In this document: piece after piece, positions 41,201 to 64,000 of the stretch
Numbering within the stretch: position 1 is the first letter of the stretch
How the letters are laid out: the number at the start of each line of letters is the position of its first letter
From: Chiloscyllium plagiosum
Taxonomy: Eukaryota
Direction: 5' to 3'
DNA length: 64,000 nucleotides
Assembly (NCBI RefSeq): GCF_004010195.1
Contig: NC_057757.1
Location: forward strand, 7,956,458-8,020,457
Made by a program: the position numbers and the translations under genes
Notes under the pieces: model-generated
What the model was told of the DNA's origin: nothing
Databases searched by the model: none
The model's input: the letters and a program-made list of their open reading frames with translations, nothing else

Positions 41201-41384
41201 GGATGTCTCACAGGGAGGTCCTCTGTCAGCAGGTGAGACCGGCATGTGTCCAGTAGAGCATGACGACAGGCCGGCATTGACGTCATGTGTATAGAAGATT
41301 TAAAACGTGGAATACTGATCCAGATTTGGTGCTTACACCCTCTCATCCTTGACAGCCTGGCCTGTAGGAAGCGCACAGGGAGCT

Positions 41385-42685: not shown

Positions 42686-42709
42686 CGTAAATCCCGTAAC
42701 TGCCTTTTC
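42686..42709 (-). CDS. Micro-exon type B, 24 nt (GKGSYGIY)
   Basis: tttgccgcacag|GAAAAGGCAGTTACGGGATTTACG|gtaattat. Confidence 0.72.
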
Positions 42710-43248
42710 CTGTGCGGCAAACAGATTGGTGTTAATCCTGACCAGTAAGGATGCTTTGGAAAGCAGCATTTTAAACGCCTAACGTGGGTTAATTTTAACA
42801 TGTAAGCCTTCGTTTCCTAATTAGTATTAAAGGTGTACAAATATCCCCTTGTACCAACTGCCCTTCAGCTGTCAGATACCTTTCACAAGTGATCAACCAT
42901 CTCCCTAAAGGAGACTTAACTCAGACCTGCTCCCTCATCTACTCCACATTAACACGGGGACCTCGAAATATTAATACTTTTCTATCAGACCCAACATTTC
43001 ATATTCTGCCAACACGTTTTAATACCTTGCCATCCTTACTCGTTTCAATGGGAAAGATTAATTCAGTTCAGGGCCAAATTAATAAATGATAAATATTTAT
43101 GTCACAATCCTGGCCATTAAAAAATCAGCATCGATTTCTAAAGCCTATGACCGCGTACATATTTCACAAAAACACTTGTACGACTTGGCCCGTGTGTTAT
43201 CTATGTCAGCAGCAAATGATGACGAGGTAATTGAGATGATATATTTAC

Positions 43249-43275
43249 CGTGGTGGTAACCATAATCATAAGGTC
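43249..43275 (-). CDS. Micro-exon type A, 27 nt (GPYDYGYHH)
   Basis: ttgttccacag|GACCTTATGATTATGGTTACCACCACG|gtaaatat. Confidence 0.75.
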
Positions 43276-43782
43276 CTGTGGAACAAAGGCATTTGTGTCA
43301 GTGTGTCTGGAGGCAATGGTTCCACATGTACAACATACAATGTTCCGAACTTGGAGCACTGTCAATGATCTGAAAAGCTCATAGAGCGTCACATACAGGC
43401 TCTGAGCTGATACCTTCAGGTTGGAGGATGAGAGTTTCTCTCATGTTCTGGGGTAGATATATAAATCTATCCTGATCTAACTCTCCATTTTATTCTTGAT
43501 TCTCTATTAAACTGAAAACTCTCAGATGTGGTAGATTCTGCTCGAGCCCACATGAGCAATGTTCAAAATCTTTTAATCTTCCCAATGTGTGACTGTTCCA
43601 ATCGGACAGGTTACCTCAGCTCTGGTCAGATAACTGACAGGTCCATGTCTCTGAGATCATCCTAGCTTTTACACTGGCCTGCTAACTTGGGATGATGGAC
43701 CTTCTGTTTTCACAGTTAAACAACTTGCCATCCAAGTGCGCTGGAAAAATGGAGAAGAAATTCACTGGAATCATATATTTAC

Positions 43783-43806
43783 CGTAAAGCCCGTAACCAC
43801 CTTTTC
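43783..43806 (-). CDS. Micro-exon type B, 24 nt (GKGGYGLY)
   Basis: tttgccccacag|GAAAAGGTGGTTACGGGCTTTACG|gtaaatat. Confidence 0.75.
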
Positions 43807-44058
43807 CTGTGGGGCAAACAGATTGGTGTTAACCCTGACCGGTAAGGATACTTTGGAGAGCAGCATTTTAAATGCCTAACGTGGGTTAACTTTAACGTGT
43901 AAGCCTTCATTTCCTAATTAATATTAAAGGTGTGCAAATGTCCCCTTGCACCAACAGTACTTCAACTGTCAGCTACCTTTCACAAGTGATCAACCATCTC
44001 CCTAAAGGAGACTTAACTCATACTGCTCCCTCATTTACTCCACAAAATATTAATACTT

Positions 44059-44627
44059 AGTGAGTTTTGAGAAGATTTGGGGCTCAGGTTGAGGTTCTGG
44101 ATGTAGATTTGCTTGCTGAGCTAGGAGGTCAATTTTCAGACATTTTGTCATCCTAATAGGGAATATCTTCAGTGAGCATCCAGAGGAAGCACTGGTGATG
44201 TAGCCCACTTTCTATTTATACGTTTGGTTTTCCTTGGGTTTGTGATGTCATTTCTGGTGGTGATGTCACTTTCTATGATTGTGTCATTTCCTGTTCTTTT
44301 TCTCAGGGTGTGGTAATTGGGATCCAAGTCAACGTGTTTGGTGATAGAGTTCCAGTTGGAATGCCATGCTTCTAGGAATTCTCGTGCGTGTCTCTGTTTG
44401 GCTTGTCCTAGAATGGCTGTGTTGTCCCAGTCAAATTGGTGTCCTTCCTCATCCGTATGTGAGGACACTAGTGAGAGAGGATCATGCCTTTTTGTGGCTA
44501 GTTGATGTTCATGTATACTAGTGGCTAGTTTTCTGCCTGTTTGTCCAATGTAGTGTTTGTTACAGTTTTAGTATTGTGACGAAACGTCTGAAATTGAACC
44601 TTCCAGCTCAGCGAGCAAACCTACATC
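44059..44627 (-). mobile_element. Penelope-like element fragment (GIY-YIG endonuclease C-terminus), 12-bp TSD, inverted terminal segment
   Basis: HTDEEGHQFDWDNTAILGQAKQRHAREFLEAWHS. ATATTAATACTT at 44047-44058 and 44628-44639 (single in other array units). 44577-44627 is an inverted copy of ~44100-44150. Confidence 0.85.
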
Positions 44628-45613
44628 ATATTAATACTTTTCTATTGGACTCAACCTTTCAGACACAGTAAATTCTGCCAACAAGTTTGAATGTCTTGCT
44701 ATCCTTACTCCTTTAATGGGAAAGATTATTTCAGTTCTGGTCCAAATTAATAAATTATAAATGGCCATTGAAAAACAGCGTCAATTTCGAAAGCCTATGA
44801 TGATTGTTATAAAGTCGATAACATGTATGATCACTTTAAGGTGGAACGTGCTTTTCTGAATGTAAAATAGAGCCACAGCTACCAGCTAAAGGTCACGCTG
44901 TTCCAAATGTAACAATTGGCTGTGAAATGGATCCCTGAGTTTTGGTTGCTGTTTTGACAACAATTTGGATTTATTCAATTAGTTCAAATTACGCCCACGA
45001 TACCAGAAGCCAATGGAATTTGAATTTTCATATTTTGACAGTTGGAATGCAATCAAGTTACAAGAATTTAATGTGTCGTAGTGGGTATATGAACCTGGTA
45101 TTTTGAAAGTTAGAGGGAGAGCAACTGCCATTGAAAAACAGTGCAACTGCTGTAGAACTAACTGCCCGTCTAACATCTTGCTTTCAAAGAAATTAGACAA
45201 CACTCTCTATCAAAGGTACCTTTACATGTGAAGCATGCGCAAGTAAACCGAAAGATGGCGACCAAGGGAGATAAGCAGCTGGAGGATTGAAGACAGTGGA
45301 GAAGACAGAGACTGTGTGGGCTCAAGATTTAGTTAATGTAATGTCTAATAAGTGGCTTATTGGAACATCATACTATTTTTTATAGAGTTGGGATCAGATA
45401 GTAAGTAATTAAGAAAAATGAAGTAAGTAGTTCATTCTGGAAAGTGTTGAAATAGATAAGACCCCTGGGTCAGATGGGATTTATCCTAGGATTCTCTGGG
45501 AAGCCAGGGAAGAGATTGCAGAGCTTTTGGCTTTGATCTTTATGTTGTCATTGTTGACAGGAGTAGTGCCAGAAGACTGGAGGATAGCAAATGTTCCCTT
45601 GTTCAAGAAGGGG

Positions 45614-46093
45614 TGATTTGGAGATATTGGTGTTGGACTGGGGTGGACAAAGTTAAAAATCACACAACACCAAGTTATAGTCCAACAGGTTTATTCTGAA
45701 GCTCTAGCTTTCAGAGCACTGCTCCTTCATCAGGTGGTTGTGGAAGACACAGAATTTATAGTAAAACTTTACAGTGTGATGTAACTCAAATTATATATTG
45801 AAGAAGACCTGGATTGTTTGTTAAGCCTCTCATCTTTTCGAATGAACATGTTGGTTTCAGTTCTTTTATATGTAAATCGCAAAACTTTTTTTAAAAGTTA
45901 CATTCTCAAGTGAACAATTGGTGTCATAGCGACCCAGATAATACATTGAAGGTGTGAGGTGTCCTGTGTGAGACTGTCTGTGCCACAATGGTCAGACTGA
46001 TTCTAATTGAAAAAACAGATTTACAGAATCTAACATGGATTTATGCAGTTTTTGAGCAAAATAAAATGTAGTCCTGCAAGTGCCATTTTTAAC
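45614..46093. mobile_element. Short non-autonomous element with hammerhead motif and 12-bp TSD
   Basis: TTCAAGAAGGGG at 45602-45613 and 46094-46105; related pieces at ~7430, ~8265-8420, ~15555. Confidence 0.8.
45702..45736 (-). ncRNA. Minimal type I hammerhead ribozyme motif, second family
   Basis: Minus strand: CAC-CUGAUGA-A-GGAGC(AGU)GCUCU-GAAAGCUA-GAG. Confidence 0.6.
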
Positions 46094-46894
46094 TTCAAGA
46101 AGGGGAGTAGAGACAACCCCTGGTAATTATAGACCAGTGAGCCTTACTTTGGTTGGGGGTAAAGTGTTGGAAAAGGTTATAAGAGATAGGATTTATAATC
46201 ATTGAACAAGTGATACGTTGATTAGGGGTAGTCAACACGGTTTTGTGAAGGGCAGGCCATGCCTCACAACGTTATTGAGTTCTTTGAGAAGGTGACCAAA
46301 TAGGTAGATGAGGGTAAAGCCATTGGTGTGGTGTATATGGATTTCAGTAAGGCAATTGATAAGGTTCCCCACGGAAGGCTATTGTACAAAATACAGGGGC
46401 ATGGGGTTGAGGGTGATTTAGTGGTTTGGATCAGAAATTGGTGAGCTGAAAGAAGACAGAGGGTGATGGTTGATGGGAAATGTTTATCCTGGTGTTCAGT
46501 TACTAGTGGTGTACCGTAAGGATCTGTTTTGGGCGCACTGCTGTTTGTCATTTTTATAAATGACCTGGGTGAGGGCGTAGAAGGATGGGTTAGTAAATTT
46601 GCGGATGACACTAAGGTCGCTGGATTGTTGGTTGTGATGGATGATGTTGTAGGTTACAGGCAGACGTAGATAAGCTGCAGAGCGGGGCTGAGAGGTGGCA
46701 AATGGAGTTTAATGTGGAAAAGTGTGAAGTGATTCACTTTGGAAGGAGCAACAGGAATGCAGAGTACTGGGCTAATGGTACGTTCTTGGTAGTGTAGATG
46801 AACAGAGAGATCTCAGTGTCTGTGTACATAGATCCTTGAAAGTTGCCACCCAGGTTGATAGGGTTGTTAAGAAGGTGTACGGTGTGTTAGCTTT

Positions 46895-49760
46895 TAGAAC
46901 ATAGAACAATACAGCGCAGAACAGGCCCTTTGGCCCTCAATGTTTTGCTGACCTGTGAACTAATCTAATCTCAACCCCCTACACTATCCCATCATCATCC
47001 ATGTGCTTATCTAAGGATTGTTTAAATCTCCCTAATGTGGTTGAGTTGACTACATTGGCAGGCAGGGCATTCCATGCCCTTACCACTCTCTGAGTAAAGA
47101 ACCTGCCTCTGACATCTGTCTTAAATCTATCACCCCTCAATTTGTTGTTATGCCCTCTCGTACAAGCTGACATCATCATCCTAGGAAAAAGACTCTCACT
47201 GTCCACCCTATCTAATCCTCTCATCATCTTGTATATCTCTATTAAATCCCCTCTTCACCGTCTTCTCTCCAATGACAACAGACCCAAGTCTCTCAGCATT
47301 TCCTCATAAGACCTTCCCTCCAGACCAGGTAACATCCTGGTAAATCTCCTCTGCATCTTTTCCAATGCTTCCACATCCATCTTGTAATGAGGTGAACAGA
47401 ACTGTACACAATATTCCAAGTATGGCCGCACCAGTGTTTTGTATAGTTGCAGCATGATATTGCGGTTCCGGAACTCAATCCCTCTACCAATGAAACCTAA
47501 CACACCGTATGCCTTCTTAACAGCACTATCCACCTGGGTGGCAACTTTCAGGGGGGATCTATGTACATGGACACCAAGATCCCTCTGCACATCCACACTA
47601 CCAAGAATCTTTCCATTGACCCAGTACTCTGCCTTCCTGTTATTCTTCCCAAAGTGAATCACCTCACATTTAGCTGCATTGAACTCCATTTGCCACCCCT
47701 CAGCCCAATTCTGTAGTTTATCCAAGTCCCCCTGCAGTCTGTAACATTCTTCCACACTGTCCACTACTCCACCGACTTTAGTATCATCTGCAAACTTACT
47801 AACCCATCCAACTATGCCTGCGTCTAAGTTATTTATAAAAATGACAAACAGCAGTGGTCCCAAAACAGATCCTTATGGCACACCACTAGTAACCGACTCT
47901 AGGCTGAATATTTTCCATCAACCACCACGGGCTGCCTTCTTTCAGAAAACCAGTTTCTAATCCAAACTGCTATACCAGCTTCAATCCCATGCCTCTGTAT
48001 TTTCTCCATCAGCCTACCATGTGGAACCATATCAAAGGCTTTACTGAAGTCCATGTACACCACACCAACTGCCCTACCCTCATCTACATGCTTGGTCACC
48101 TTCTCAAAAAACTCAATGAGGTTTATGAGGCATGACCTGCCCTTGACAAATCCATGTTGTCATTATTTCTTGCGGGATGATTATAAATCCCATCTCCAAT
48201 AAGCCTTTCTAAAACTTTTCCGACAACATAAGTAAGGCTCACTGGTCTATAATTACCTGGGTCATCTCTACTGCCCTTCCTGAACAAGGGCATAAACCTG
48301 TAGACAATGACGACTCAAAGATCAAAGCCAAAGGCTCTGCCATCTCCTCCCTAGTTTCCCAGAGAATTCTCAGAAAAATCCCATCTGGCCCAGGGGACTT
48401 ATCTACTTTCACACCTTCTAGAATTGATAACACCTCCTCCTTAGTAACCTCGATCCTTTCTAGTCTAATAACCCATATCTCAGTCTTCTCCTCTACAATA
48501 TTCTCCTTTTCCTGAGTGAAAACAGATGAGAAATATTCATTTCATACCTTTCTGATCTCCACAGGGTGCACACACAACTTCCCATTTCTGTCTTTGACCG
48601 GCCCGATTTCTACCCTAGTCATCCTGTTATTCCTCACATATTTATAGAATGCTTTAGGGTTCTCCTTTACTCTACCTGCTAAAGACTGCTCATGTACTCT
48701 CTTTGCTCTTCTTAACTCTCTCTTTAATCCTTCCTAGCTACTCTGTAACTCTCTGTCACCTCATCTGAACCATCTCGCCTCAACGTCACATAAGCCTCCC
48801 TCTTCCACTTAACAAGAGATAACAATTTCTTTAGTAAACCATGGTTCCCTTACCTTATCACTTCCTCCCTGTCTGACAGGGACATACCTATCAAAGACAC
48901 GTAATATCTGTTCCTTAAACCAGCTCCACATTTCAATTGTTCCCATCCCCTGCATTTTTCTGCCCCATTCTATGCCTCCTAAGTCTTGCCTAATCACTTT
49001 ATAATATATAACTCTTGCCTGATGGCATGTACCTATCCTTTCCATCGCTAAACTAAACGTAACCGAATTACCAAGCACCAGATCCAGTTTGGCCTCCCCT
49101 CTTGTCGACCCTTCGACATACTGTGTCAGGAAACCTCTCCTGCACACATTGGACAAAAACAGACCCATCCAACGTACTAGAGTTATGCATTTCCAGTCAA
49201 TGTTGGGGAAGTTAAAGTCCCCCATAATGACCACCCTGTTTCTTTCACTCCTGCCCAGAATCGTTTTGCCAATCCTCTCCTCCACATCCCTGGAACTTGG
49301 TGGAGGCCGATAAAAGAACTCCCAGCAGTGTGACCTCTCCTCTCCTAACCTCATCCCATACCACCTCAGTAGACGAGCCCTCAAGAAACGTTCTTTCAGC
49401 CACCGTTATACTGTCCTTGACTAACAAAGCCACACCTCCCTTTCTTTTACGACCTTCCCTGATGAAAGATCTAAACCCTGGAACCTGCAACATCCATTCC
49501 TGTCCCTGCTCTACCCATGTCTAAGAAATGGCCACAACATCGAAGTCCCAGTTACCTATCCATGCTGCAAGCTCACCTATCTTATTCCAGATACTCCTGG
49601 CATTGAAGTAGACACACTTCAAGCCAGCTTGCTGTCTGCCAGCACATCCCTGTGACTGTGAGATCCTGTCCATGCCCTCCCTACTCTCATCCTCCTGCGC
49701 ACTGCAACCACACCTCAGGTTCCCATTCCCCTGCTGAGCCAGTTTAAACCCACCCGCATT
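46895..49760 (-). mobile_element. Inner CR1 LINE, ~2.9 kb (APE endonuclease + RT, decayed)
   Basis: [42 protein letters not shown] motifs. Confidence 0.93.
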
Positions 49761-50679
49761 ATTATTTTACACAAATAAATACTTTATTGGTAGAGGGATT
49801 GAGTTTCGGAGTCATGAGGTCATGCTGCAGCTGTACAAAACTCTGGTGCGGCACTTGGAGAATTGCGTACAGTTCTGGCCACTGGATTATAGGAAGGAAG
49901 TCGAAACATTGGAAAGGGTGTAGAGGAGATTGACCAGGATGTTGCCTGGTATGGAAGGAAGGTCTTATGAGGAAAGGCTGGGGGTTTGAGGCTGTTTTTG
50001 TTGGAGAGAAGGTTAAGAGGTGACTTAATAGAGACATACAAGATAATCAGAGGGTTAGATAGGGTGGACAGTGAGAGCCTTTGTCCTCAGATAGTGATGG
50101 CTAGCACAAGGGGATATAGCTTTAAGCTGAGGGATGGTAGATATAGGACAGCTGGCAGAGGTAGGTTCTTTACTCAGAGAGTAGTATGGGCGTGGAATAC
50201 CCCGCCTGCAACAGGAGTAGACTCCCCAACTTTAAGGACATTTAAATGGTCACTGGATAAATATATGGATGAGAATGGAATAGTGTCGGTTGGATGGGCT
50301 TCGGATTGGTTCCACAGGTTGGCGCAACATCGAGGGTCTGTACTGCGCTGGAATGTTCTATGTTCTATATTCTAAGGGGGGTCTTGGATTTGTGAATAGT
50401 TACTGTTTAGTGTTTATTATGAGAGTTAAGAAAATTAATTGTTATTTTAGTTTAAATAGTGGAATTTGGGAATTGTCTGTCACTCATTAGCTTCACATTA
50501 ACCTTTAACAAATTGTGAGACGAGATGAGCTTTTCTGACTTAATTAACAGAGGGGTTTGACCTGTGCATCCTTACACCAGGTACACATTTCACAAAAGCA
50601 ATTCTACAGCTTGGCCTGTGTGTTATCAGTGTCTTGTTCAGAGCAAACCGATAAAAGATAATTGAAATGAAATATTTAC

Positions 50680-50703
50680 CGTGGTAACCATAATCATAAG
50701 GTC
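50680..50703 (-). CDS. Micro-exon type A, 24-nt variant with 3-nt deletion (GPYDYGYH)
   Basis: ttgttccacag|GACCTTATGATTATGGTTACCACG|gtaaatat; frame-preserving indel. Confidence 0.75.
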
Positions 50704-51239
50704 CTGTGGAACAAGTAGATTTGTGTTAGCGTGGCTGGAGCTAATAGTTCCATATGTACAATATACAATGTTCCTAACTTGCAGCATTGTCAATGATCAG
50801 AAAAGCTCAGTGGGCTTCACTTAATGGCACTGTGCTGATCAGCAGGAGCTGTTACCTTCAGGTTGGAGGGTGAGCTTGTCTCTCATGTTCTGGGGTCAAT
50901 ATTGAATGATCTGCCCTGATCTAACTCTCTCTATTTTGTTCCAGCTTCTCTACTAAACCGAAAACCCTCAGGCTTGGTGAATTCTGCACAAGCCCACACA
51001 TAAAACGTCTGTGCCCTTTCAATCTTCCAATGTGTGACTGTTCCAATCGGACAGGTTACCTCAGCTCTGGTCAAATAACTGACGGGTCCATGTCTCTGAG
51101 ATCACTCTAGCTTTTACACTGGCCAGCTAACTTTCCAATGACTTTGGGATGATGGACCTTCTGTTTTCACAGTTAAACAACTTGCCATCCAAGTGCGCTG
51201 GAAAAATGGAGAAGAAATTCACTGGAATCATATATTTAC

Positions 51240-51263
51240 CGTAAATCCTGTAACTGCCTTTTC
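51240..51263 (-). CDS. Micro-exon type B, 24 nt (GKGSYRIY)
   Basis: tttgccccacag|GAAAAGGCAGTTACAGGATTTACG|gtaaatat. Confidence 0.75.
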
Positions 51264-51815
51264 CTGTGGGGCAAACAGATTGGTGTTAACCCTGACTGGT
51301 AAGGATGCTTTGGAAAGCAGCATTTTAAACGCCTAACGTGGGTTAACTTTACCATGTAACCCTGCATTTCCTAATTAATATTAAAGATGTGCAAATGTCC
51401 CCTTGTACCAACTGCCCTTCAGCTGTCAACTACCTTTCACATGTGATCAACCATCTCCCTAAAGGAGACTTAACTCATACCTGCTCCCTCATCTACTCCA
51501 CATTAACACGGGAACCTCAAAATATTAATACTTTTCCAACAGACTCAAACTACCATATTTGGTAAACACTGCCAACACATTTTAATGCCTTGCCATCCTT
51601 ACTCCTTCAGTGAGAAAGATTACTTCAGTTCAGGGCCAAATTAATAAATGATAAATATTTATGTCACAATCCTGGCCATTGAAAACTCAGCATCGATTTC
51701 TAAAGCCCATGACCACGTACACATTTCACAAAATTAATTCTCCGACTTGGCCCGTGTGTTATCAGTGTCTTGTTCGTAGCAAACGATAACGAGGTAATTA
51801 AAATGATATATTTAC

Positions 51816-51842
51816 CGTGGTGGTGGCCATAATTGTAAGGTC
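51816..51842 (-). CDS. Micro-exon type A, 27 nt (GPYNYGHHH)
   Basis: ttgttccacag|GACCTTACAATTATGGCCACCACCACG|gtaaatat. Confidence 0.75.
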
Positions 51843-52378
51843 CTGTGGAACAAAGAGATTTGAGTCAGCGTGTCTGGAGGCAATGGTTCCACATGTACAA
51901 CATACAGTATTCCCATTTTGCAGCATTGTCAATGATCAGAAAAGCTCACAGGGCTTCACATAAAGGCTGTGCTGATCAGCAGGAGCTGTTACCATCAGGT
52001 TGGAGGGTGAGATTTTCATCAATGTCTGGGGAGATACTGAAAGGTCTACCCTGATCTAACTCTCTCTATTGTGTTCCAGCTTCTCTATTGATCTGAAAAC
52101 CCTCAGCCTGGGCAATTGCTGCCCGAGCCCCCGTGGACAACATTCCAAATCTTTTGAACCTGCCAATGTGTGACTGTTCCAAACGGACAGATTACCTCAG
52201 CTCTGGTCAAATAACTGACAGGTCCATGTCTCTGAGATCACCCTAGCTTTTACACTGGCCTGCTAGCTTTTGAAAAGCTTTGGGATGCTGGAGATTTTGT
52301 TTTCACAGTTAAACAGCTTGCCATCCAATTGCTCTGTAATAACGAAGGACAAGGAATTCACTGGAATCATATATTTAC

Positions 52379-52402
52379 CATAATCCCCGTAACCACCTTT
52401 TC
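52379..52402 (-). CDS. Micro-exon type B, 24 nt (GKGGYGDY)
   Basis: tttactccacag|GAAAAGGTGGTTACGGGGATTATG|gtaaatat. Confidence 0.75.
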
Positions 52403-53462
52403 CTGTGGAGTAAACAGATTGGTGTTAATCTTGAAACTTTGGAAAGCAGCATTTTAAATGCGTGTTTATTGTAACAGGTAACCCTTCATTTCCGAATGAT
52501 TCATCATAGATTTTAAAATAGCCACATTGGTTGTAGTTCTGTTGAACATTTAGGCAAACACACTGACATCAAAGGAATGGGGAGATACCATACACTGAAG
52601 CCTCCTTATCTTGACACATTATATCCAAATCAGCTCGATGATATAGACTGAGCCTCTGTAAATCAGGATTGGCTGGCAAGGGTGAATCTGATCAATCTGA
52701 ATTTCCTCTCTTGTAAATTAGTTTAACATTGTCTCAAACATATTCCTAATGTCTTACGAATGGATTTGAACCTCATTGGGGCGAACAAGTCTTTCTTTAG
52801 TTTTACATCCTCTGTTTTGTTACAACTGTCTGGGGTCTAAGATGTTGGATGTGAAGGCTGGTGTGGTGGTAAGTGAGGGAAGGTTGAGGGTGGAAATGCA
52901 GGAGATGGATTGAACGTGGCTGAGGGCCCTGTCACTATGGTAACATGGGACTGTGGCTGAGGAGAAAGATGGACCTTTCTCAGGCTCCTTTACAGAAGGT
53001 GGAATAGATGTGATGGAGACACATCTGGGATGGAATCGTTACAGGAAGTAGGGTGTGAGGGTGTATAATCTCTCTCTGTACAGATGCTGGGAGTCGCTGG
53101 GTTTATAGTGTGTGGTCTGTCCCCAGAAATGGAAATACAGGCATAAAAATACAATGGTTCAATGGACATTGTACAATATTCCCAACTTGCTTTGTTGTCA
53201 ATGATGAGACAAGCTCAGAGGTCTTCACATAGATTTTTTGTAAGTATTTTCAATCCACGCTGGTCAGAGATTTTACATCACCGCTCTGGAGCAGGTGGGA
53301 GTAATCCTGGATCTCCAGGCTTAGAGGTCAGGACACTACCACCAATGCAGAGATACCATGCACTGAGGCCTCCTTATCTCTGCAGCACAAGAGCCCTCAG
53401 GATTGGAGTTAATGGTGTACAAATGTCCCCTCGCACCAACTGTGCTTCAGCTGTCAACTATC

Positions 53463-54006: not shown

Positions 54007-54392
54007 CCTACCTTTCACATGCGATCAACCATCTCACTACAGGAGACTCCACTCAGCCTGCTCCCTCATTTACTCCACATTAACACGGGGACCTCAAAAT
54101 ATTAATACTTTCCTAACTGACTCAAACTACCATATTTGGTAAATTCTGCCAACACGTTTTAATGCCTTGCCATCCTTACTCCTTCAGTGAGAAAGATTAC
54201 TTCAGTTCAGGGCCAAATTAATAAATGATAAATATTTATGTCACAATCCTGGCCTTTGACAAGGCAGCATCGATTTCTAAAGCCTATGACCACGTACACA
54301 TTTCACAAAAACATTTCTATGGCTTGGCCCTTGTGTTATCAGTGTCTTGTTCAGAGCAAACAGTACCAAGGGAATTGAGATGATATATTTAC

Positions 54393-54419
54393 CGTGGCGG
54401 TGGCCATGATCGTAAGGTC
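54393..54419 (-). CDS. Micro-exon type A, 27 nt (GPYDHGHRH)
   Basis: ttgttccacag|GACCTTACGATCATGGCCACCGCCACG|gtaaatat. Confidence 0.75.
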
Positions 54420-55987
54420 CTGTGGAACAAAGAGATTTGAGTCAGTGTGTCTGGAGGCAATGGTTCCACATGTACAACATACAATGTTCCCAACTTACAG
54501 CATTGTCAATGATCAGAAAAGCTCAGAGCGCTTCACGTAAAGGCTCTGAGCTGATCAGCAGGAGCTGTTACAATCAAGTCCTTGCAATATAAATGCCATC
54601 ATTGCATTTCCCTTCCTAAATACGGACTCAACCTGCAAGTCTATCTTGAGATAATCAAAAAACCCCAAGTGTCTTTGCACTCTGTACTCAGCTCTGCCCC
54701 TTTACTCTCTTGAATTTTTGGGACCTTAGTCACGTATTCCACCAGGAAGAGTGAGGCAAAGTAATTACCAATCTCTCAGCCATTTCCATGTTCCCCACTA
54801 TTATCTCTCCATTTTGGCCTCTATTTTGGCCTGTGTATATCTGAAGAAATCTTTCAGTCCTCCTTTCTAATACTGGTTAGCTTATCCTCATATTTAATTT
54901 TTCCCTCTTTATTCCTTGTTTTACTGCCCTCTGTTGGTTGTTGTAAGCTCTGTGATTTTTTTTAATCAAAGGGCAAGTCCCTGTTTATATATTTTTTGTT
55001 TGTTTTAAACCCCACACTACCGCCTAACTGCAGTAGTAGCTCTGTGATAAATACTATGCCTCTACAGATCAGGATTGGCTGGCAAGGGTGAATCTATGAT
55101 CTGATCAATCTGAATTTCCTCTCTTGTAAATTAGTTTAACATTTTCCAAAAACATGTTCCTAATCTCTAACGAATGGATTTGAACCTCATGGTGTGAACA
55201 AGTCTTTCTTTAGTTTTACATCCTCTGTTTTGTTCCAACTGTCTGGGGTCTGAGATGTTGGATGTGGAGGCTGGTGTGGTGGTAAGTGAGGAAATGGGGC
55301 ACCAGATGTGATGAGATAGAGAATGGGATGGGAGAATGGGATGGAATCCTGACAGGAAGCAGGATGTGTGGGTGTGTAATCTCTCTCTGTACAGAATGTG
55401 GAAGCCACCAAGTTTGTAGCATGCCGGCGGGTCCCAAGAAATGAAAATACAACCGTTCCATGGACCTTACACAAATTTCGCAACTTGCAGTGTTGTAACG
55501 ATCAGAAAACCTCAGAGGATTTCATATCGATTTTTTTGTAGGTATTTTGAAACCTGACTGTTCAGAGGTTTTATACCACCACTCTGGAGCAGATGGGAGT
55601 AATCTTGGATCTCCAGGCTGAGAGGTCAGGACACTACCACTGCTGCACAAGAGCCCTCAGGATTGCAGTTGATGGTGTACAAATGTCCCCTCGCACCAAC
55701 TGTGGTTCAGCTGTCAACTATCTTGTGCACAGTGCGGTCCCCTTAGTTGAGGAAAGATGTAGTAACATCAGAGGCAGTTCAGAGGAGGCTCACAAGATTA
55801 CTTCAGTTCAGAGCCAAATTAATAAATTATAAATATTTATGTTACAATCCTGGCCATTGGAAAATCAGCATTGATTTCTAAAGCCTACGGCCACATTTCA
55901 CAAAAACACTTCTACAACTTAGTCTGTGTGTTATCAGCGTTTTGTTCATAGCAAATGATAATGAGGTAATTGAAGTGATATATTTAC

Positions 55988-56014
55988 CGTGGTGGTGACC
56001 ATGACCGTAAGGTC
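55988..56014 (-). CDS. Micro-exon type A, 27 nt (GPYGHGHHH)
   Basis: ttgttccacag|GACCTTACGGTCATGGTCACCACCACG|gtaaatat. Confidence 0.75.
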
Positions 56015-56551
56015 CTGTGGAACAAAGAGATTTGTGTTACTGTGCCTGAAGACAATAGTTCCATATGTACAACATACAATATCCCAACTCGCAGCACTGT
56101 CAATGATCAGAAAAGCTCAGAATGCGAAAAGTAAAGGCTCTGAGCTGATCAGGAGGAGCTGTTACCTTCAGGTTGGAGGGTTAGATTTTCTTTAATGTTT
56201 GGGGAGATACTGAAAGGCCTACCCTGATCTAATTCTCTCTATTGTGTTCCAGCTTCTCTATTGATCTGAAAGCCCTCAGCCTGGGCAATTGCTGCCCGAG
56301 CCCCCGTGGACAACATTCCAAATCTTTTGACCCTGCCAATGTGTGACTGTTCCAAACGGACAGATTACCTCAGCTCTGGTCAAATAACTGACAGGTCCAT
56401 GTCTCTGAGATCACCCTAGCTATTACACTGGCCTGCTAGCTTTTGAAAAGCTTTGGGATGATGGAGATTTTGTTTTCACAGTTAAAAGGCTTGCCAGCCA
56501 AGTGCTTTGTAATAACGAAGGACAAGGAATTCACTGGAATCATATATTTAC

Positions 56552-56575
56552 CATAATCCCCGTAACCACCTTTTC
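56552..56575 (-). CDS. Micro-exon type B, 24 nt (GKGGYGDY)
   Basis: tttgctccacag|GAAAAGGTGGTTACGGGGATTATG|gtaaatat. Confidence 0.75.
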
Positions 56576-56683
56576 CTGTGGAGCAAACAGATTGGTGTTA
56601 GCCCTGGCCGGTAAGGATACTTTGGAAAGCAGCATTTTAAATGTCTAACGTGTGTTCACTGTAACATGCAACCCTTCATTTCC

Positions 56684-57058
56684 NNNNNNNNNNNNNNNNN
56701 NNNNNNNNNNNNNNNNNNNNNNNNNNNNNNNNNNNNNNNNNNNNNNNNNNNNNNNNNNNNNNNNNNNNNNNNNNNNNNNNNNNNNNNNNNNNNNNNNNNN
56801 NNNNNNNNNNNNNNNNNNNNNNNNNNNNNNNNNNNNNNNNNNNNNNNNNNNNNNNNNNNNNNNNNNNNNNNNNNNNNNNNNNNNNNNNNNNNNNNNNNNN
56901 NNNNNNNNNNNNNNNNNNNNNNNNNNNNNNNNNNNNNNNNNNNNNNNNNNNNNNNNNNNNNNNNNNNNNNNNNNNNNNNNNNNNNNNNNNNNNNNNNNNN
57001 NNNNNNNNNNNNNNNNNNNNNNNNNNNNNNNNNNNNNNNNNNNNNNNNNNNNNNNNNN
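56684..57058. other. Assembly gap inside the micro-exon array
   Basis: Run of N between two B exons; may hide one or more A exons. Confidence 1.
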
Positions 57059-57304
57059 GTGGACAACATTCCAAATCTTTTGAACCTGCCAATGTGTGAC
57101 TGTTCCAAACGGACAGATTACCTCAGCTCTGGTCAAATAACTGACAGGTCCATGTCTCTGAGATCACCCTAGCTATTACACTGGCCTGCTAGCTTTTGAA
57201 AAGCTTTGGGATGCTGGAGATTTTGTTTTCACAGTTAAATAGCTTGCCAGCCAAGTGCTCTGTAATAACGAAGGACAAGGAATTCACTGGAATCATATAT
57301 TTAC

Positions 57305-57328
57305 CATAATCCCCGTAACCACCTTTTC
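57305..57328 (-). CDS. Micro-exon type B, 24 nt (GKGGYGDY)
   Basis: tttgctccacag|GAAAAGGTGGTTACGGGGATTATG|gtaaatat. Confidence 0.75.
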
Positions 57329-58670
57329 CTGTGGAGCAAACAGATTGGTGTTAGCCCTGGCCGGTAAGGATACTTTGGAACGCAGCATTTTAAATGTCTA
57401 ACGTGTGTTAACTGTAACATGCATCCCTTTGTTTCCTAATGATTCATCGTAGACTTTAAAACAGCCACGTTGGTGTAAAGCTATTAAACACATAGCCAAA
57501 CACACTGACACCAAAGGAATGGGGAGGTACCGTACACTGAGGCCTCCTTATCCTGACACATTATATCCAGATCAGCTCTGTGATATACACGGAGTCTCTA
57601 TAAATCAGGATTGGCTGGCAAGGGTGATTCTATGATCTGATCAATCTGAATTTCCTCTCTTGTAAATTAGTTTGAAATTGACCCAAAACATATTCCTAAT
57701 CTCTAATGAATGGATTTGAACCTCATGGTGTAAACAATTCTTTATTTTGTTTTATATCCTCTGTTTTGTTCCAACTGTCTGGGGTCTGAGATGTTGGATG
57801 TGGAGGCTGGTGTGGTGGTAAGTGAGGAAATGGGGCACCCTCTCATTGCTGAGGGAAGGCAGGGAAGGGGTGAGGGTGGAACTGCAGGAGGTGGATTGAA
57901 CGTGGCTGAGGGCCCTGTCATCACGGTAACATGGGACTGTGGCTGAGGAGGAAGGTGGACCTTTCTCAGGCTCCTTTACAGAAGGTGTGACAGATGTGAT
58001 GGAGATGGAGAATGGGATGGAATCCTGAAAGGAAGCAGGATGTGTGGGTGTATAATCTCTCTCTGTACAGAATGTGGAAGCCACCAAGTTTATAGCATGC
58101 CGGCATGTCCCAAGAAATGAAAATACAATCGTTCCATGGACCTTACACAAATTTCCCAACTTGCAGTGTTGTCAACGATCAGAAAACCTCAGAGGTCTTC
58201 ATATCGAGTTTTTTGTAGGTATTTTGAAACCAGACTGTTCAGAGATTGTATACCACCGGTCTGGGGCAAATGGGAGTAATCTTGGATCTCCAGGCTGAGA
58301 GGTCAGGACACTACCATTGTTGCACAAGAGCCCTCAGGATTGCAGTTAATGGTATACAAATGTCCCCTCGCACCAACTGTGGTTCAGCTGTTAACTATCT
58401 TGTGCACAGTGTGGTCCCCTTAGTTGAGGAAAGATGTAGTAACATTAGAGGCAGTTCAGAGGAGGCTCACAAGATTACTTCAGTTCAGGGCCAAATTAAT
58501 AAATTATAAATATTTATGTTACAAGCCTGGCCATTGGAAAATCAGCATTGATTTCTAAAGCCTACGGCCACGTACACATTTCACAAAAACACTTCTACGA
58601 CTTAGTCTGTGTGTTATCAGCATCTTGTTCATAGCAAATGATAATGAGGTAATTGAAGTGATATATTTAC

Positions 58671-58697
58671 CGTGGTGGTGACCATGACCGTAAGGTC
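58671..58697 (-). CDS. Micro-exon type A, 27 nt (GPYGHGHHH)
   Basis: ttgttccacag|GACCTTACGGTCATGGTCACCACCACG|gtaaatat. Confidence 0.75.
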
Positions 58698-59234
58698 CTG
58701 TGGAACAAAGAGATTTGTGTTACTGTGCCTGAAGACAATAGTTCCATATGTACAACATACAATATCCCAACTCGCAGCACTGTCAATGATCAGAAAAGCT
58801 CAGAATGCTAAAAGTAAAGGCTCTGAGCTGATCAGGAGGAGCTGTTACCTTCAGGTTGGAGGGTTAGATTTTCTTTAATGTTTGGGGAGATACTGAAAGG
58901 TCTACCCTGATCTAACTCTCTCTATTGTGTTCCAGCTTCTCTATTGAACTGAAAGCCCTCAGCCTGGGCAATTGCTGCCCGAGCCCCCGTGGACAACATT
59001 CCAAATCTTTTGAACCTGCCAATGTGTGACTGTTCCAAACGGACAGATTACCTCAGCTCTGGTCAAATAACTGACAGGTCCATGTCTCTGAGATCACCCT
59101 AGCTATTACACTGGCCTGCTAGCTTTTGAAAAGCTTTGGGATGATGGAGATTTTGTTTTCACAGTTAAACAGCTTGCCATCCAAGTGCTCTGTAATAACG
59201 AAGGGCAAGGAATTCACTGGAATCATATATTTAC

Positions 59235-59258
59235 CATAATCCCCGTAATCATCTTTTC
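59235..59258 (-). CDS. Micro-exon type B, 24 nt (phase 1: GKDDYGDY)
   Basis: tttactccacag|GAAAAGATGATTACGGGGATTATG|gtaaatat. Confidence 0.75.
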
Positions 59259-59869
59259 CTGTGGAGTAAACAGATTGGTGTTAGCCCTGGCCGGTAAGGA
59301 TACTTTGGAAAGCAGCATTTTAAATGTCTAACGTGTGTTCACTGTAACATGCAACCCTTCATTTCCGAATTATTCATCATAGACTTTAAAACAGCCACGT
59401 TGGCGTAAATCTATTGAACACATAGCCGAACACACTGACACCAACGGAATGGGGAGGTACGATACACTGAGGCCTCCTTATCCTGACACATTATATCCAG
59501 ATCAGCTCTGTGATATACACTGAGTCTCTGCAAGTCAGGATTGGCTGGCAAGGGTGAATCTGTGATCTGATCAATCTGAATTTCCTCTCTTGTAAATTAG
59601 TTTAACATTATCCCAAAGTATATTCCTAATCTCGTTTTAATGCCTTGCCATCCTTACTCCTTCAGTGAGAAAGATTACTTCAGTTCAGGGCCAAATTAAT
59701 AAATTATAAATATTTATGTCACAATCCTGGCCACTGAAAAATCAGCATCAATTTCTAAAGCCTATGACCATGTACACATTTCATAAAAACACTTCTACAT
59801 TTGGCCTGTGTGTTATCAGTGTCTTGTTGATAGCAAATGATAATGAGGTAATTGAAGTGATATATTTAC

Positions 59870-59896
59870 CGTGGTGGTGGCCATGATCGTAAGGTC
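59870..59896 (-). CDS. Micro-exon type A, 27 nt (phase 1: GPYDHGHHH)
   Basis: ttgttccacag|GACCTTACGATCATGGCCACCACCACG|gtaaatat. Confidence 0.75.
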
Positions 59897-60340
59897 CTGT
59901 GGAACAAAGAGATTTGTGTTACTGTGCCTGAAGGCAATAGTTCCATATGTACAACATACAATATTCCCAACTCGCAGCACTGTCAATGATCAGAAAAGCT
60001 CAGAACGCTTCAAGTAAAGGCTCTGAGCTGATCAGCAGGAGCTGTTACCTTCAGGTTGGAGGGTGAGAGTTTCTTTCATGTTTTGGGGAAGATACTGAAT
60101 GTTCTAGCCTGATGTAACCCGGTCTATTTTGTTCCAGCTTTTGCATTGAACTTAAACTCCTCAGACTTGGCAAATTCTGCTCAAACCCACATGAGCACAA
60201 ATCTTTGGATCTTCCCAATGTGAGACTGTTCCAGCTGGGCAGATTACCTCAGCTCTGTTCAAATAACTGATATATCCATGTCTCTGAGGTCATCCTAGCT
60301 TTTACAATCACCTGAAAGCTGTCTAAAACCTTGGGGATGA

Positions 60341-63300
60341 GACCACAACGTATAGGAGCACAAATTAGGCCATTCAGCCCATCCAGTCTGCTCTGCCATT
60401 CAGTCATGGCTGGTAGGTTTCTCAACACACTCTCCCACTTACTCCCCATAATGCTTGATCCCCTTTACAATCAAGAACCTATCTATCTCCATCTTAAATA
60501 TACCCAATGACCTGGCCTCCACAGCCTTCTGTGGCAGTGAATCCCATAGATTCCCCATTCTCTGGCTGAAAACATTATTCCTTATCTCCATTCTAAAAGC
60601 TCTTCCCTTTACTCTGAGGCTGTGCCCTCGGGTCCTAGTCCCTCCTCTCAATGGGAAACATCTTCCCAACATCCTCTCTGTCCAGGCCATTTGTTATTCT
60701 GGCTGTTTCAATTAGATCCTCCCTCATCCTTCTGAACTCCATTGAGTAAAGACTCAGAATCCTCAAACATTCCTCATAAGTTAAGTTTTTCATTCCTGGG
60801 ACCATTCTCTGAACACGGTCTAAGGCCCGTCTATCCTTCCTGAGATATGGGGCCCAGACCTGTACTCAATACTCCAAATGTAGTCTGGCCAGAGCCTTAT
60901 AGATCCTTAGAAATATGTCCCTGCTTTTATCTTCAAGTCCTTTCAGATTGCATTTGCCTTCCTAACCACTGACTTAACCTGCAAGTTTACCTTGAGAGAA
61001 TCCTGGACTAGAACACCCAAGTCTCTTTGCAATTTCTGAATTTTCTCCCCATTTAGAAAACAGCCCATGTCTCTGTTCTTCCGACCACATTGTACTCCAT
61101 CTGCCACTTCTTTGCCCACTCTCCTAACCTGTCCAAATCTTTCTATAGCCTCCCCGCCTCCTCAATACCACCTGTCCCTCTACCTATCTTTATATCGTCT
61201 ACAAACTTTGCCAGAATGCTCTCCGTTCATTCATCTAGCTCGTTAATGTATCAAGTGAAAAGTTGTCCCATCACCGAGCCTTGCAGAACACCACTTGTCA
61301 CCGGCTGCCATCCTGAGAAGGCCCCTTTTATCCCCACTCTCTGCTTCCTGCCAGACAGCCAAGCTTCTCTCCATGCTAGCACCTTACCTCTGACACCATG
61401 GGTCCTTATCTTCCTCAGCAGCCTCCTGTGTGGCACCTTGTCAAAGGACTTCTTGTAGTCCAGTTAGATAACATCCATTGACTCCACTTGGTCTATTTTG
61501 CTTATTCAAAGAATTCTTGCAGATTTGTCAGGCATGACCTGCCCTTGATGAAACTATGCTGACTTTGCCCTATTTTAACATACGCTTCCAAGTTTTCGGA
61601 AATCTCATCCTTCACATTGGATTCCAGGATCTTACCCATGACCAAGGTTAGGTTAACCGTTCTGTAATTTTCCATCTTTTGCATTACTCCCTTTTTCAAC
61701 AGGTGATTTTCCAGTCCTCTGGGACCTTCCCTGACTCTCGTGATTCCTGAAAGATCACCACTAACGCCTCCACTATTTCTTCAGCGATCCATCTTAGAAC
61801 TCTGGGGTGTAGTCCATCTGGTCCAGGTGATTTATCCATCTTCAGGCCATTCAGTTTTTCTGGCACCTTCTCCTTGGCGATGGCCACCATACCCAGCTCT
61901 GCCTCCTCACTCTGTTGAAGTTTTGGGATATTACTCATGTCTTCCACTGTGAAGCAATTATTCATTGCCTTGTTCCCCACTTCTCTCTCTCCAGTGTCAT
62001 TTTCTAGCAGTCCAATGTCTCTCTTTTTGCCTCTCTTTTGCCCTTTATATATCTGAAGAAGCTCTTACAGTCCTCCTTTACATTACTGGCTAGCTTACCC
62101 TCCTATTTAATCTTCTCCCTCCTTATTTCTGTTTTTGTTACCATCTGTTAGTATTTGTAAGCTTCCCAATCCTCTGGTTTCCCACTGCCCTTCCCCACAT
62201 TATGTGCTTTCTCTTTTGCTTTTATACTACCCCTGCCTTCCCCAGTCAGCCATCGCTGCCTCATCCTCCCTGTCCCATGCTTCCTTTCTCTCGGGATGAA
62301 TCTCTGCTGTGTCTCCTGAATTACTCCCAGAATCCCCTGCCAATTGTTGATCCCCTACCTTTCCTGCCCGGCTCCACTCTCAGTCAATTCTCTCCAGCTC
62401 TTCCCTCATGCCTCTGTAGTTGCCTGTATTCAGCTGTACTACTGTAACCTCTGATTCTATCTTCTCCCTTTCATATTGCAGAGTAAATTCTATCATAGTA
62501 TGGCCACCTTAAGTTCCCTGATCAAGTCTGCATCATTGTACAACACTAAATCCAGTATTGCCTGTTCCCTAGTGGGCTCCACCACAAGCCATCTCAGAGA
62601 CATTCCACAAATTCCTTTTCTTGCAATTCACTACCAACCTGATTATCCTGGTCCCCCTGCATATTGAAACTCCCCCATGATCACTGTAACCTTGCCTTTC
62701 CTACTCATCCTTTCTATCTCCTAGTGTACCTAGCACCCCAGTTCATGACTACTGTTTGGAGGCCTGTACATAACTCCAGCTGTGGTTGTTTTAACCAATG
62801 CGGTTCCTCAATTCACCCCATACAGATTCTATACCATCTGACCCTACGTTGTCTCTTCCTATTGGTCTAATTTCATTTCTTATTAACAAAAGTCAACCCC
62901 AACTCCTTTGCAAACCTACCTGTCTTTTCAGTAGGTTGTATATCCTCGAATATTCAGCTCCTAATCCTGATCCCCTTGCAGCCACGTCTCCGCGATGCCC
63001 ACCACGTCATACCTACCTATTTCGGTCTGTGCCACAAGCTCATTTACCTTATTCCTTAAACTGCGTGTATTCAGATATAACACCTTGAGCCCTGTATTAA
63101 CCATCCCTCTTCTCGTTGTCATTCGTTTGTCCAGTGTGCTTGCAGTTTGATTGCTAACCTTGTCCATAAACCCTTCCTACGTGTGTCTGTCCTGGAGATT
63201 TTAATAACCTCTCCTGAGTTCTGAACTCTTACCTCCTCCTTTAATTCAGATTTTCTAATGTCCCCAATAACTGAACCCTCAGCCCCTCCCCATTTAGTTT

Positions 63301-63897
63301 AAAGCCATGTTTATTGCCCTAGTTTTGTGATTCACTCCGAGGTCCCAGCACAGTTCAGGTGAAGACCGTCCCATTGGAACAGGTTGGCTCTTTCCCAGTA
63401 CTGGTGCCAATGTCCCTTGAATTCAACCCCATTTCTCCCACACCAATCTTTGAGCCATACATTTACCTGCTTAATCTTATTGATTCTGTGCCTTGGCTCG
63501 GGTGGTAATCCAGAGACTGTTACCTTTCGTTTCTGCTTTTTTAGTGTAGCTCCTATCTGTTCATGCTCCCTGGGCAGAAACTCTGCCCCAGTTTTATTGA
63601 TGTGGTTGGTACCTACGTTGACCAGGACCACTGGATTTTTACCTTCCTAGTCCAGGTTCCTCAGCAGCCCAGATGAGAGATTCCGAATCCGAGCACCAGG
63701 CAGGCAACTCAACCTTCAGACCTCTCGGTCCTGGTCACAAGGAATAGTGTTTAAGCCTCTAACAATACTATCCCCAATTACAACAAGATTTCTCTTCTCT
63801 CCCCCCCACCTGCACCCACGGAGCTGCGGTCAGTCAGCTCATCCTCCCTGCAGGCCCCATTCCCCTCCACACAAGGACCAAGAATCCTGAACCTGTT
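60341..63897 (-). mobile_element. CR1 LINE ~3.6 kb with ORF1 SGNH-esterase remnant and decayed ORF2; 6-bp TSD
   Basis: VNVGTNHI...DGLHLN (esterase), YLNTRSL...GIAETWL (APE), DKSPGPDGLHPRVL; GGATGA at 60335-60340 and 63898-63903. Confidence 0.92.
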
Positions 63898-63993
63898 GGA
63901 TGACAGACATTTTGTTTTCACAGTTAAACAACTTGCCATCCAAGTGCTCTGTAATAATGAAGGACAAGGAATTCACTGGAATCATATATTTAC

Positions 63994-64000
63994 CATAATC
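63994..64000 (-). CDS. Micro-exon type B, partial (3' end ...GATTATG; phase 1 ...DY)
   Basis: Ends GATTATG|gtaaatatat like other B exons; truncated by the window edge. Confidence 0.6.

Follow-up and report, generated by a model that had tools for sequence, protein, structure and literature searches.

The micro-exon genes (MEGs) of Schistosoma make secreted proteins from very small pieces: a signal-peptide exon is followed by 10–20 or more very short exons, mostly with lengths divisible by three (3n) and set between long introns, and such genes are often missed by automatic annotation (PMC10526429). Here, we describe a locus in the cartilaginous fish Chiloscyllium plagiosum at which something similar seems to have been put together from other material. 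It is a minus-strand array of exons of 24 and 27 nt, and we think that it is probably a real protein-coding gene for a secreted Gly/Tyr/His-rich protein. The window that we analyzed is a stretch of 64,000 nt (C48:7956458–8020457, C48 being contig NC_057757.1) from an assembly of 3.56 Gb in 101,977 contigs, and positions in it are counted from its first letter.

Two other kinds of protein are useful for comparison. Tropoelastin (ELN) is built from symmetric phase-1 internal exons of two alternating types, with a split codon that is usually Gly, and its secreted product is disordered and cross-linkable. Trematode eggshell proteins, cockroach oothecins, and the elasmobranch egg capsule represent a second theme, that of secreted Gly/Tyr-rich proteins in which His and Lys are used in cross-linking; quinone or dityrosine hardening relies on Tyr in combination with Lys and His. 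A comparable composition is found in the squid beak, where the histidine-rich proteins (HBPs) are described as undergoing liquid–liquid phase separation once their His residues are deprotonated near pH 6–7 and their Tyr residues cluster (PMC6884462).

The question that we address is a narrow one: is an array of exon-sized pieces, nearly lost among its own repeats, a gene, and if it is, in which frame would it be read, and what would it make?

The Array

Fourteen complete cassettes (seven of type A and seven of type B; 354 nt in total) lie on the minus strand between 42,686 and 64,000, all placed there already by the initial annotation, which also had the partial cassette at the window's edge. 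The 7 bases of that partial (63994–64000) close a B cassette whose remainder, up to 64017, falls just outside the window. All seven B cassettes are 24 nt long; six of the A cassettes have 27 nt, and the seventh, having cleanly lost 3 nt, is down to 24 nt. An AG acceptor and a GTAA donor border every one of the 14 (cacag and gtaaat in 13; gcacag and gtaatt in the last, at 42686), and the consensus has a yTnAC motif with its A ~23 nt 5' of each acceptor. These are the gtaa(a/t)t donors and the TRAC branch-point-like motif, 20–25 nt before the acceptor, that had been reported for the array. Phases 1 and 0 are open across all cassettes, and the reported closure of phase 2 in several exons comes down to stops in three of them (50680, 43249, and 59235).

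The 14 cassettes are not 14 independent observations because they are copies of one tandem unit of ~1.15 kb, which holds an A and a B cassette and whose introns are also 80–90% identical among copies. Larger insertions interrupt the units: interspersed-repeat-like and other inserted sequence breaks the homology in introns of 4.1 and 6.9 kb, as had been claimed. (To judge by reading alone, the ~3.5-kb insert in the intron at 59897..63993 looks like reverse transcriptase.) Where one A cassette directly follows another, at 54393, it does so because the B part of that unit is missing; a further type-A cassette may be hidden inside the run of N at 56684–57058.

The array does not end with the window. 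With the window's numbering carried past 64000 (extended coordinates), we examined 60 kb upstream of the gene, toward higher C48 coordinates, and found ten further cassettes, for a total of 24, 21 of which have both splice dinucleotides intact (Table 1).

Is the unit, then, just one member of a family scattered over the genome? The initial annotation had named a dispersed transposon or satellite as the identity that would speak against a gene, and a genome-wide examination rules it out, nearly all matches to the unit being at one C48 locus: 25 of the 30 places matched are at C48:7.998–8.041 Mb, with three on C97878, one on C26, and one (61 nt) on C7. The flank patterns of the cassettes are likewise restricted, in a genome-wide search, to two C48 loci and four small contigs.

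A First Exon and a Conceptual Product

The start and signal-peptide exons had been expected beyond the window. In the 27 kb upstream, we looked for a hydrophobic peptide that starts with ATG and runs up to a phase-1 GT donor, and one of the two candidates, 27 kb upstream of the window's end, is what we call exon 1 (Table 1). Its ATG stands in the context gcaATCATGG, with TATAAAA 57 nt 5' of it; its peptide is MVYQNIFLLFSLLAVSMA, followed by G|gtaaag, that is, by a phase-1 end; and its predicted 18-residue hydrophobic leader ends in ...VSMA (signal peptides here were judged by hydropathy and the -3/-1 rule). The 401 nt of the exon-1 region are single-copy in the genome. A control scan of the whole extended region of 124 kb, on both strands and in three phases, returned 88 signal-like exons, eight of them in phase 1 on the minus strand, and among the minus-strand cases, exon 1 is the only one with a TATA box within 120 nt. 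Taken on its own, exon 1 is suggestive, which is less than decisive.

Between exon 1 and the cassettes lies exon 2, with a ctaac branch point, a pyrimidine tract, a ctcag acceptor, and a gtatga donor. When the 21 intact cassettes are joined to exons 1 and 2, 207 codons are open from the ATG, with 2 and 5 stops in the remaining frames. The mature conceptual product (excluding whatever the N gap and the 3' end may contribute) has 189 residues, ~20.9 kDa, and a calculated pI of 7.1; it consists of Gly (31.2%), Tyr (22.8%), His (16.9%), Asp (8.5%), Pro (6.9%), and Lys (6.3%), which amounts to ~32 His, 43 Tyr, 12 Lys, and 16 Asp. Val and Ala stand at 0.5% each, and there is no ordinary hydrophobic core.

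A Second Locus and a Small Family

The strongest evidence for the gene comes from its relatives, among them a paralogue with a homologous signal-peptide exon. A degenerate B-like cassette pattern run against the genome gave 23 matches vs. 11 for the reversed control (14 in related loci and 9 elsewhere, the latter at about the control level), and two of the matches, at C48:4.36 Mb, led to a second locus, 3.6 Mb away and on the same strand. Exon 1 of the paralogue reads MKYLCLFLLVSLMAVVMA and then G|gtacgt, once more in phase 1. The signal peptides of the two loci are identical at 11 of 18 residues, a figure reached by none of 100,000 composition-preserving shuffles, and the two signal-peptide exons, each upstream of its own array, were found independently by one scan.

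The second array is made from different pieces. Besides one 15-nt exon, it comprises eight 18- or 24-nt cassettes that read in phase 1 as GHGGGY, GPGDYGGY, GKKGRGGY, GYKGYGGY, GYGGYGDY, and similar, and six cassettes of 21 nt, ~2 kb apart, that read GYHGGHG, GYGPGHG, and similar. The six are preceded, at 4361665, by an exon resembling a cassette, which has an in-phase stop and lacks a donor; an identical 46-mer with AATAAA occurs at C48:4361208 and again at C48:4348908. By its sequence, the locus may be one micro-exon gene or two. Its putative terminal region, compared with the window, matched only repeats and acceptor modules.

Diverged cassettes on C97878 and C26 are 71–78% identical to those of the array, and all four keep AG and GT; their (D/G)GYGxY reading persists, and what can be aligned with the array is the cassettes and ~50–170 nt of flank only. 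Either they are remnants, or they belong to additional members of the family. Three small contigs, C90234, C100447, and C51916, are also related. The window gene thus appears, on sequence grounds, as one member of a small family in this genome.

The two first exons also bear on the frame. The initial annotation had cautioned that phase 0 was open and varied in a somewhat more coding-like way, and both parts of that observation stand: phase 0 is open in 24 of 24 cassettes, and its variable sites are spread 5/9/11 over the codon positions. Could the gene be read in phase 0, as a Thr/Met/Val-rich, mucin-like protein (DLTIMATTT / EKVVTGIM)? We give this almost no credence. Upstream, just one exon combines a TATA box with a Kozak ATG and a signal peptide, and it ends in phase 1, as does exon 1 of the paralogue; only the phase-1 reading stays open from the exon-1 ATG; and the Gly/Tyr/His reading is common to all cassette classes, whereas the phase-0 readings share nothing. 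We take the frame to be phase 1 because of how exon 1 ends, and the original proposal of a spliced, minus-strand, symmetric phase-1 micro-exon gene gains support from that exon, from the paralogue, and from the conserved splice flanks described below.

Lengths and Strand

Suppose that one knew nothing of the exons and defined a cassette solely by a 20-nt acceptor context (with at most 4 mismatches) and the first GTAA after it. In the 124-kb extended region, this definition finds 25 matches, every one on the minus strand and none on the plus strand; in 23 of them a GTAA follows within 90 nt, and these 23 are without exception 24 or 27 nt long, the two others being exon 2 (with its GTATGA donor) and the donor-mutated cassette. 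In 40 kb of the paralogous locus, all 16 matches are again on the minus strand, 15 of them with a GTAA, and all 15 have lengths of 15, 18, 21, or 24 nt. Over the 3.56-Gb genome, the exact A/B/21-nt acceptor pattern with GTAA has 19 matches (seven of 21 nt, six of 24 nt, and six of 27 nt), and the pattern of the 18/24-nt class has 9 (five of 18 nt and four of 24 nt), against 0 for either one reversed. All 28 of these flank-defined cassettes have lengths divisible by 3, and so do all seven length classes when exon 2 is included (15, 18, 21, 24, 27, and 36 nt and the 24-nt A variant). The cassette pattern with its splice signals is far beyond chance.

Such regularity matters for a second alternative, in which the array is a noncoding tandem repeat of the host-gene kind, its short exons spliced and untranslated and its function residing in the introns, as in imprinted snoRNA host arrays. 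What lends this idea some color is that the best-conserved parts of the array are blocks in the middle of the introns (0.95–0.97 identity, above the cassettes themselves), which bear a donor-like CTGAnGTAATCT motif. The 3n lengths speak against it because a noncoding spliced repeat has no reason for them, and it would have to account as well for a homologous signal-peptide exon with matching phase at two loci and for a phase-1 composition that is alike at loci with different cassette DNA. No Rfam family was found in one whole unit, even at E up to 1, or in 41–64 kb at the gathering score. We regard a noncoding array as very unlikely and keep to the protein-coding gene.

The mid-intron blocks deserve a description of their own. 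In each B-to-A intron, a block of ~75 nt ends in CCAGAGCTGAG|GTAA, and its 15-mer occurs eight times where 0 would be expected; a related block in the A-to-B intron has CTGAACTGAA|GTAATCT at its end. If the B-to-A block were taken as a 36-nt AG...GT cassette, it would bear an in-phase TGA. The block could help splicing along, act as a decoy, or serve as a poison exon.

What Selection May Have Kept

If the tiny exons are truly spliced, one should see it in their flanks, and the older the cassettes compared, the better. Between A and B, identity is 88% over intron positions -25 to -1 and 5% over positions -45 to -26; on the donor side, the figures are 92% for +1 to +12 and 55% for +13 to +25. 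Against the 21-nt class of the other locus, A is 92% identical at -25 to -1 and 20% at -45 to -26 (donor, 50% and then 25%), and B is 92% and 26% identical (donor, 50% and then 33%). The exon bodies differ almost wholly between these old classes. In other words, the branch point, pyrimidine tract, AG, and donor have been kept while their surroundings decayed, and that is what is expected of truly spliced tiny exons. Selection would hold on to the final 25 nt of each intron (branch point, pyrimidine tract, and AG) and to the first 12 nt of the next because exons so small can be recognized only via strong flanking signals.

The classes also retain a trace of common origin. The 5'-most B cassette (GKGSYGYH) and the 5'-most A cassette (GPYDYGYHH) share Y-G-Y-H, spelled once as TAT GGA TAT CAT and once as TAT GGC TAC CAC, and all three differences are silent in phase 1, which points to one ancestral cassette.

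Several observations weigh against a functional coding gene, and they should be set out together. Within the array, the exons are conserved no better than the introns: pairwise identity averages 0.87 in A exons, 0.83 in B exons, and 0.88–0.93 in the adjacent 20 intron bases, and the expectation that exons and splice sites would be more conserved than introns failed when we tried it there, with a test that has no power among such young duplicates. The variable sites do not favor phase 1 either (11/5/9 by codon position, vs. the 5/9/11 of phase 0). Broken AG or GT dinucleotides are found in 3 of 24 cassettes, which is about what neutral decay would produce. Signal-like phase-1 exons are not rare under criteria as lax as ours, as the eight minus-strand cases in 124 kb attest. 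Neither a convincing terminal exon nor a poly(A) site has been established. The lack of frameshifting indels in the exons carries no weight: 19 gap runs in 1153 intron columns predict ~0.8 in 51 exon columns, and one, of 3 nt, is seen. That one is the clean loss at 50680, which had been singled out as the sole exonic indel; it is there, and it adds nothing. The within-array tests do not separate selection from recent duplication because the copies are too young.

Some of these observations are what a third alternative would call on, namely that we are looking at a dead or dying micro-exon gene, no longer expressed or no longer making protein, in which young tandem duplication and neutral drift account for the pattern. 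Exons no better conserved than introns and the three cassettes with broken splice sites would suit it, as would a weakened last donor and a 3' side where inserted repeats and a 5-kb satellite take over before any clear terminal exon. Against it, exon 1, exon 2, and 21 cassettes are intact, with the whole length of codons open from the ATG; the broken cassettes can be skipped with the frame unchanged because every cassette is symmetric; and the splice flanks have been retained across the old cassette classes. A dead gene is improbable in our judgment, and we prefer one that is still transcribed, spliced, and translated.

Where would such a gene end? If the weak donor of the last cassette were read through, 20 codons would be added before a stop at 42626–42624, and an AATAAA follows at 42467–42462, which is present in the last unit only among the five units compared at that site. 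A second candidate is a degenerate A-type cassette at 41893, after acacag, that would close the frame with Ala-Phe-stop; an inserted repeat comes directly after it, and there is no AATAAA before a 57-nt satellite. A search of 148 frames from window positions 1–42 kb against Pfam gave only a 7tm_1 receptor, a reverse-transcriptase fragment, and low-complexity matches, none of them informative on the 3' end.

The satellite adjoins the gene's 3' side, at 36046–41214, in ~90 copies of ~85% identity with a higher-order period of 283 nt. Further copies are found near 11.5–12.8 kb and at C97878:14373–22498, where the satellite adjoins a diverged cassette fragment.

The Proposed Gene and Its Product

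The gene that we propose would span ~49 kb, from C48:8047612 down to about 7998900, so that 42.5–64 kb of the window would be its 3' two thirds. Exon 1, with its TATA box and a short 5' UTR, would supply an 18-residue signal peptide and end after the first base of a Gly codon; the 36-nt exon 2 and then ~21–25 alternating cassettes of 24 and 27 nt would follow, all of them phase 1-1, and because they are, every junction rebuilds a Gly codon. The array would have grown by tandem duplication of the 1.15-kb two-cassette unit, and both cassette types would derive from one ancestor that read roughly G-x-x-x-Y-G-Y-H. What would be secreted is a protein of ~21 kDa with Gly at 31%, Tyr at 23%, and His at 17%, plus Asp, Lys, and Pro.

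What could such a protein be for? By analogy, a structural role is most likely, as a disordered extracellular matrix or coating protein. Its ~32 histidines would switch its solubility near neutral pH or with metal ions, and its tyrosines would allow it to harden, whether through dityrosine or through DOPA-quinone links to His and Lys. That is, the protein would condense on a pH or metal cue and then be cross-linked.

Comparison with Described Systems

How does this locus compare with the systems with which we began? With the MEGs it has in common a signal-peptide exon, short 3n exons, long introns, and a secreted product, and in saying so we claim no family membership; the phylum is a different one, and no sequence relation is claimed or expected. 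MEG exons are very short (3–81 bp) and mostly 3n, and those here have 24, 27, and 36 nt (15–24 nt in the paralogue); MEGs carry an N-terminal signal peptide in a conventional first coding exon, and one is predicted here, with a homologous leader at the second locus. The differences are just as plain. MEG exons are mostly unrelated to each other, whereas the window gene repeats a single cassette pair in tandem; Pro, Phe, and Leu abound in MEG proteins, and ours would be a Gly/Tyr/His repeat; and alternative splicing of the micro-exons, central to MEGs, is here only a possibility.

Tropoelastin shares the phase 1-1 internal exons, the split Gly codon, and the two alternating exon types. Its exons are longer (27–186 nt vs. 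24–36 nt), sequence similarity is not to be expected, and the alternation of Gly/Val/Pro hydrophobic domains with Lys-Ala cross-linking domains is absent from a product so poor in Val and Ala. Squid-beak HBP-1 and HBP-2 are of the same general type, Gly/His/Tyr-rich, disordered, and secreted, and the His and Tyr content of the window product and its pI of 7.1 would fit their pH switch by analogy. The HBPs are molluscan and analogues only; the window gene's repeats are of 8–9 residues and also include Lys, Asp, and Pro, and the tandem GHGxY repeats of the HBPs are missing, there being no GHGxY in its conceptual product. The likeness to quinone-tanned eggshell and egg-case precursors would be one of composition. 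Elastoidin is described as having a tyrosine-rich non-collagen part, and the And (actinodin) proteins carry repeats.

Two further families were considered and ruled out. All coding-region introns of SCPP genes (including those for histatin and statherin) are in phase 0, and here the two signal-peptide exons both have a phase-1 end. The high-glycine-tyrosine keratin-associated proteins are single-exon, intracellular, and free of signal peptides, and the window gene has >20 exons and a predicted signal peptide.

The literature on shark egg cases and oviducal glands, actinodin, elasmobranch microexons, and short-exon Gly/Tyr/His genes yielded no description of such a gene, and the motif GHGHHH appeared in unrelated work only (subscription journals were not covered in either case). 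A search among the longer proteins of a collection with a 45-residue read-through frame that includes one A cassette gave one word-sharing candidate and no scored match, which is weak evidence against a close relative in that collection.

One might go further and see here the vertebrate counterpart of the schistosome MEGs: a lineage-specific family, with at least two to three genes on one chromosome-scale contig plus fragments, built from tandemly duplicated 15–36-nt phase-1 cassettes, each held by a conserved 25-nt "micro-exon acceptor module," and devoted to secreted Gly/Tyr/His materials proteins, the product at hand being a histidine-switched, tyrosine-cross-linked matrix protein. Taken whole, this is a tentative proposal that we would rather doubt than defend. 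If it were true, the mid-intron blocks may aid splicing; skipping of exons could vary the number of repeats, every cassette being symmetric; the protein would be a convergent analogue of the squid-beak HBPs; and it would be a candidate for a tyrosine-rich non-collagen component of some hard or elastic tissue of cartilaginous fishes, the egg capsule or fin-ray elastoidin being examples.

The protein-coding gene, with or without that extension, would matter for simpler reasons. Its largest coding exon has 55 nt, which makes it invisible to ORF-based gene finders and to many that run free of evidence, and the family, if real, exemplifies protein-coding content hidden in what looks like an intergenic repeat. 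It would offer a clean natural system for the recognition of exons of 15–36 nt, complete with a 25-nt acceptor module and mid-intron blocks, and a repeat protein that could be lengthened by single modules of 8–9 residues via unequal crossing-over. From its composition one would predict a vertebrate material that responds to pH or metal and can be cross-linked through tyrosine, of the sort for which squid-beak and mussel proteins are now copied.

Table 1. Coordinates of exons, cassettes, introns, candidate ends, and related loci (window numbering unless a contig is given; extended numbering continues it past 64000)
Feature	Position	Strand	Remarks
Exon 1	extended 91155-91101 = C48:8047612-8047558	minus	TATA box, Kozak ATG, predicted signal peptide, phase-1 end
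Exon 2	extended 86076-86041	minus	36 nt; from acceptor-context scan alone; phase 1 open, reads APLVKHDPYYGP
B cassette	extended 84752	minus	array continuation
A cassette	extended 80137	minus	array continuation
B cassette	extended 75350	minus	array continuation
A cassette	extended 73089	minus	array continuation
B cassette	extended 72258	minus	acceptor mutated to AA
A cassette	extended 72068	minus	donor mutated to AA
A cassette	extended 68790	minus	acceptor mutated to AT
B cassette	extended 67084	minus	array continuation
A cassette	extended 66553	minus	array continuation
B cassette	extended 63994 (same cassette as in the next row)	minus	array continuation
B cassette end (7 bases)	63994..64000; whole 63994-64017	minus	24 nt, GKSGYGDY
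4.1-kb intron	59897..63993	minus	unit homology broken by ~3.5 kb of interspersed-repeat-like sequence
Type-A cassette	59870..59896	minus	27 nt, GPYDHGHHH
Type-B cassette	59235..59258	minus	24 nt, GKDDYGDY
Type-A cassette	58671..58697	minus	27 nt, GPYGHGHHH
Type-B cassette	57305..57328	minus	24 nt, GKGGYGDY
Assembly gap	56684..57058		375 N; flanked by two B cassettes; the gap in the initial annotation's spliced reading
Type-B cassette	56552..56575	minus	24 nt, GKGGYGDY
Type-A cassette	55988..56014	minus	27 nt, GPYGHGHHH
Type-A cassette	54393..54419	minus	27 nt, GPYDHGHRH; directly after another A
Type-B cassette	52379..52402	minus	24 nt, GKGGYGDY
Type-A cassette	51816..51842	minus	27 nt, GPYNYGHHH
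Type-B cassette	51240..51263	minus	24 nt, GKGSYRIY
Type-A cassette, 3 nt lost	50680..50703	minus	24 nt, GPYDYGYH
6.9-kb intron	43807..50679	minus	inserted sequence breaks unit homology
Type-B cassette	43783..43806	minus	24 nt, GKGGYGLY
Type-A cassette	43249..43275	minus	27 nt, GPYDYGYHH
Last type-B cassette	42686..42709	minus	24 nt, GKGSYGIY; 5-nt deletion weakens donor to gtaatt
Candidate 3' end	42462..42685	minus	weak-donor read-through, stop, AATAAA
Alternative candidate 3' end	41860..41893	minus	degenerate A-type cassette; G|CT TTC TAA, phase 1
Mid-intron 15-mers	42506-42520, 43611-43625, 51056-51070, 52192-52206	minus	B-to-A introns
Mid-intron 15-mers	56365-56379, 57118-57132, 59048-59062, 60244-60258	minus	B-to-A introns
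Paralogous locus	C48:4349347-4379583	minus	signal-peptide exon and 15-, 18-, 21-, and 24-nt cassettes
Diverged cassettes	C97878:10391-13808		GPYDYVIY, SRDGYGIY, ASDGYWH-stop (in-phase TAA)
Diverged single cassette	C26:387774-387797		GNDGYGTY

Neighboring Sequence

Outside the array, the window holds an intact frame of 334 residues, contained in one exon, that encodes a rhodopsin-family G protein-coupled receptor (8904–9905, minus strand; Pfam 7tm_1, E = 7e-45), in a GC-rich stretch ~33 kb downstream of the array, and a fragment of a reverse-transcriptase frame (17861–18259, minus strand; Pfam RVT_1, E = 1e-6). Four runs of N interrupt the window, at 16307–16449, 22474–22947, 35546–36045, and 56684–57058, the last one inside the array. 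Copies of interspersed repeats, which resemble those of sharks and rays, are frequent throughout the window and within the gene's long introns.

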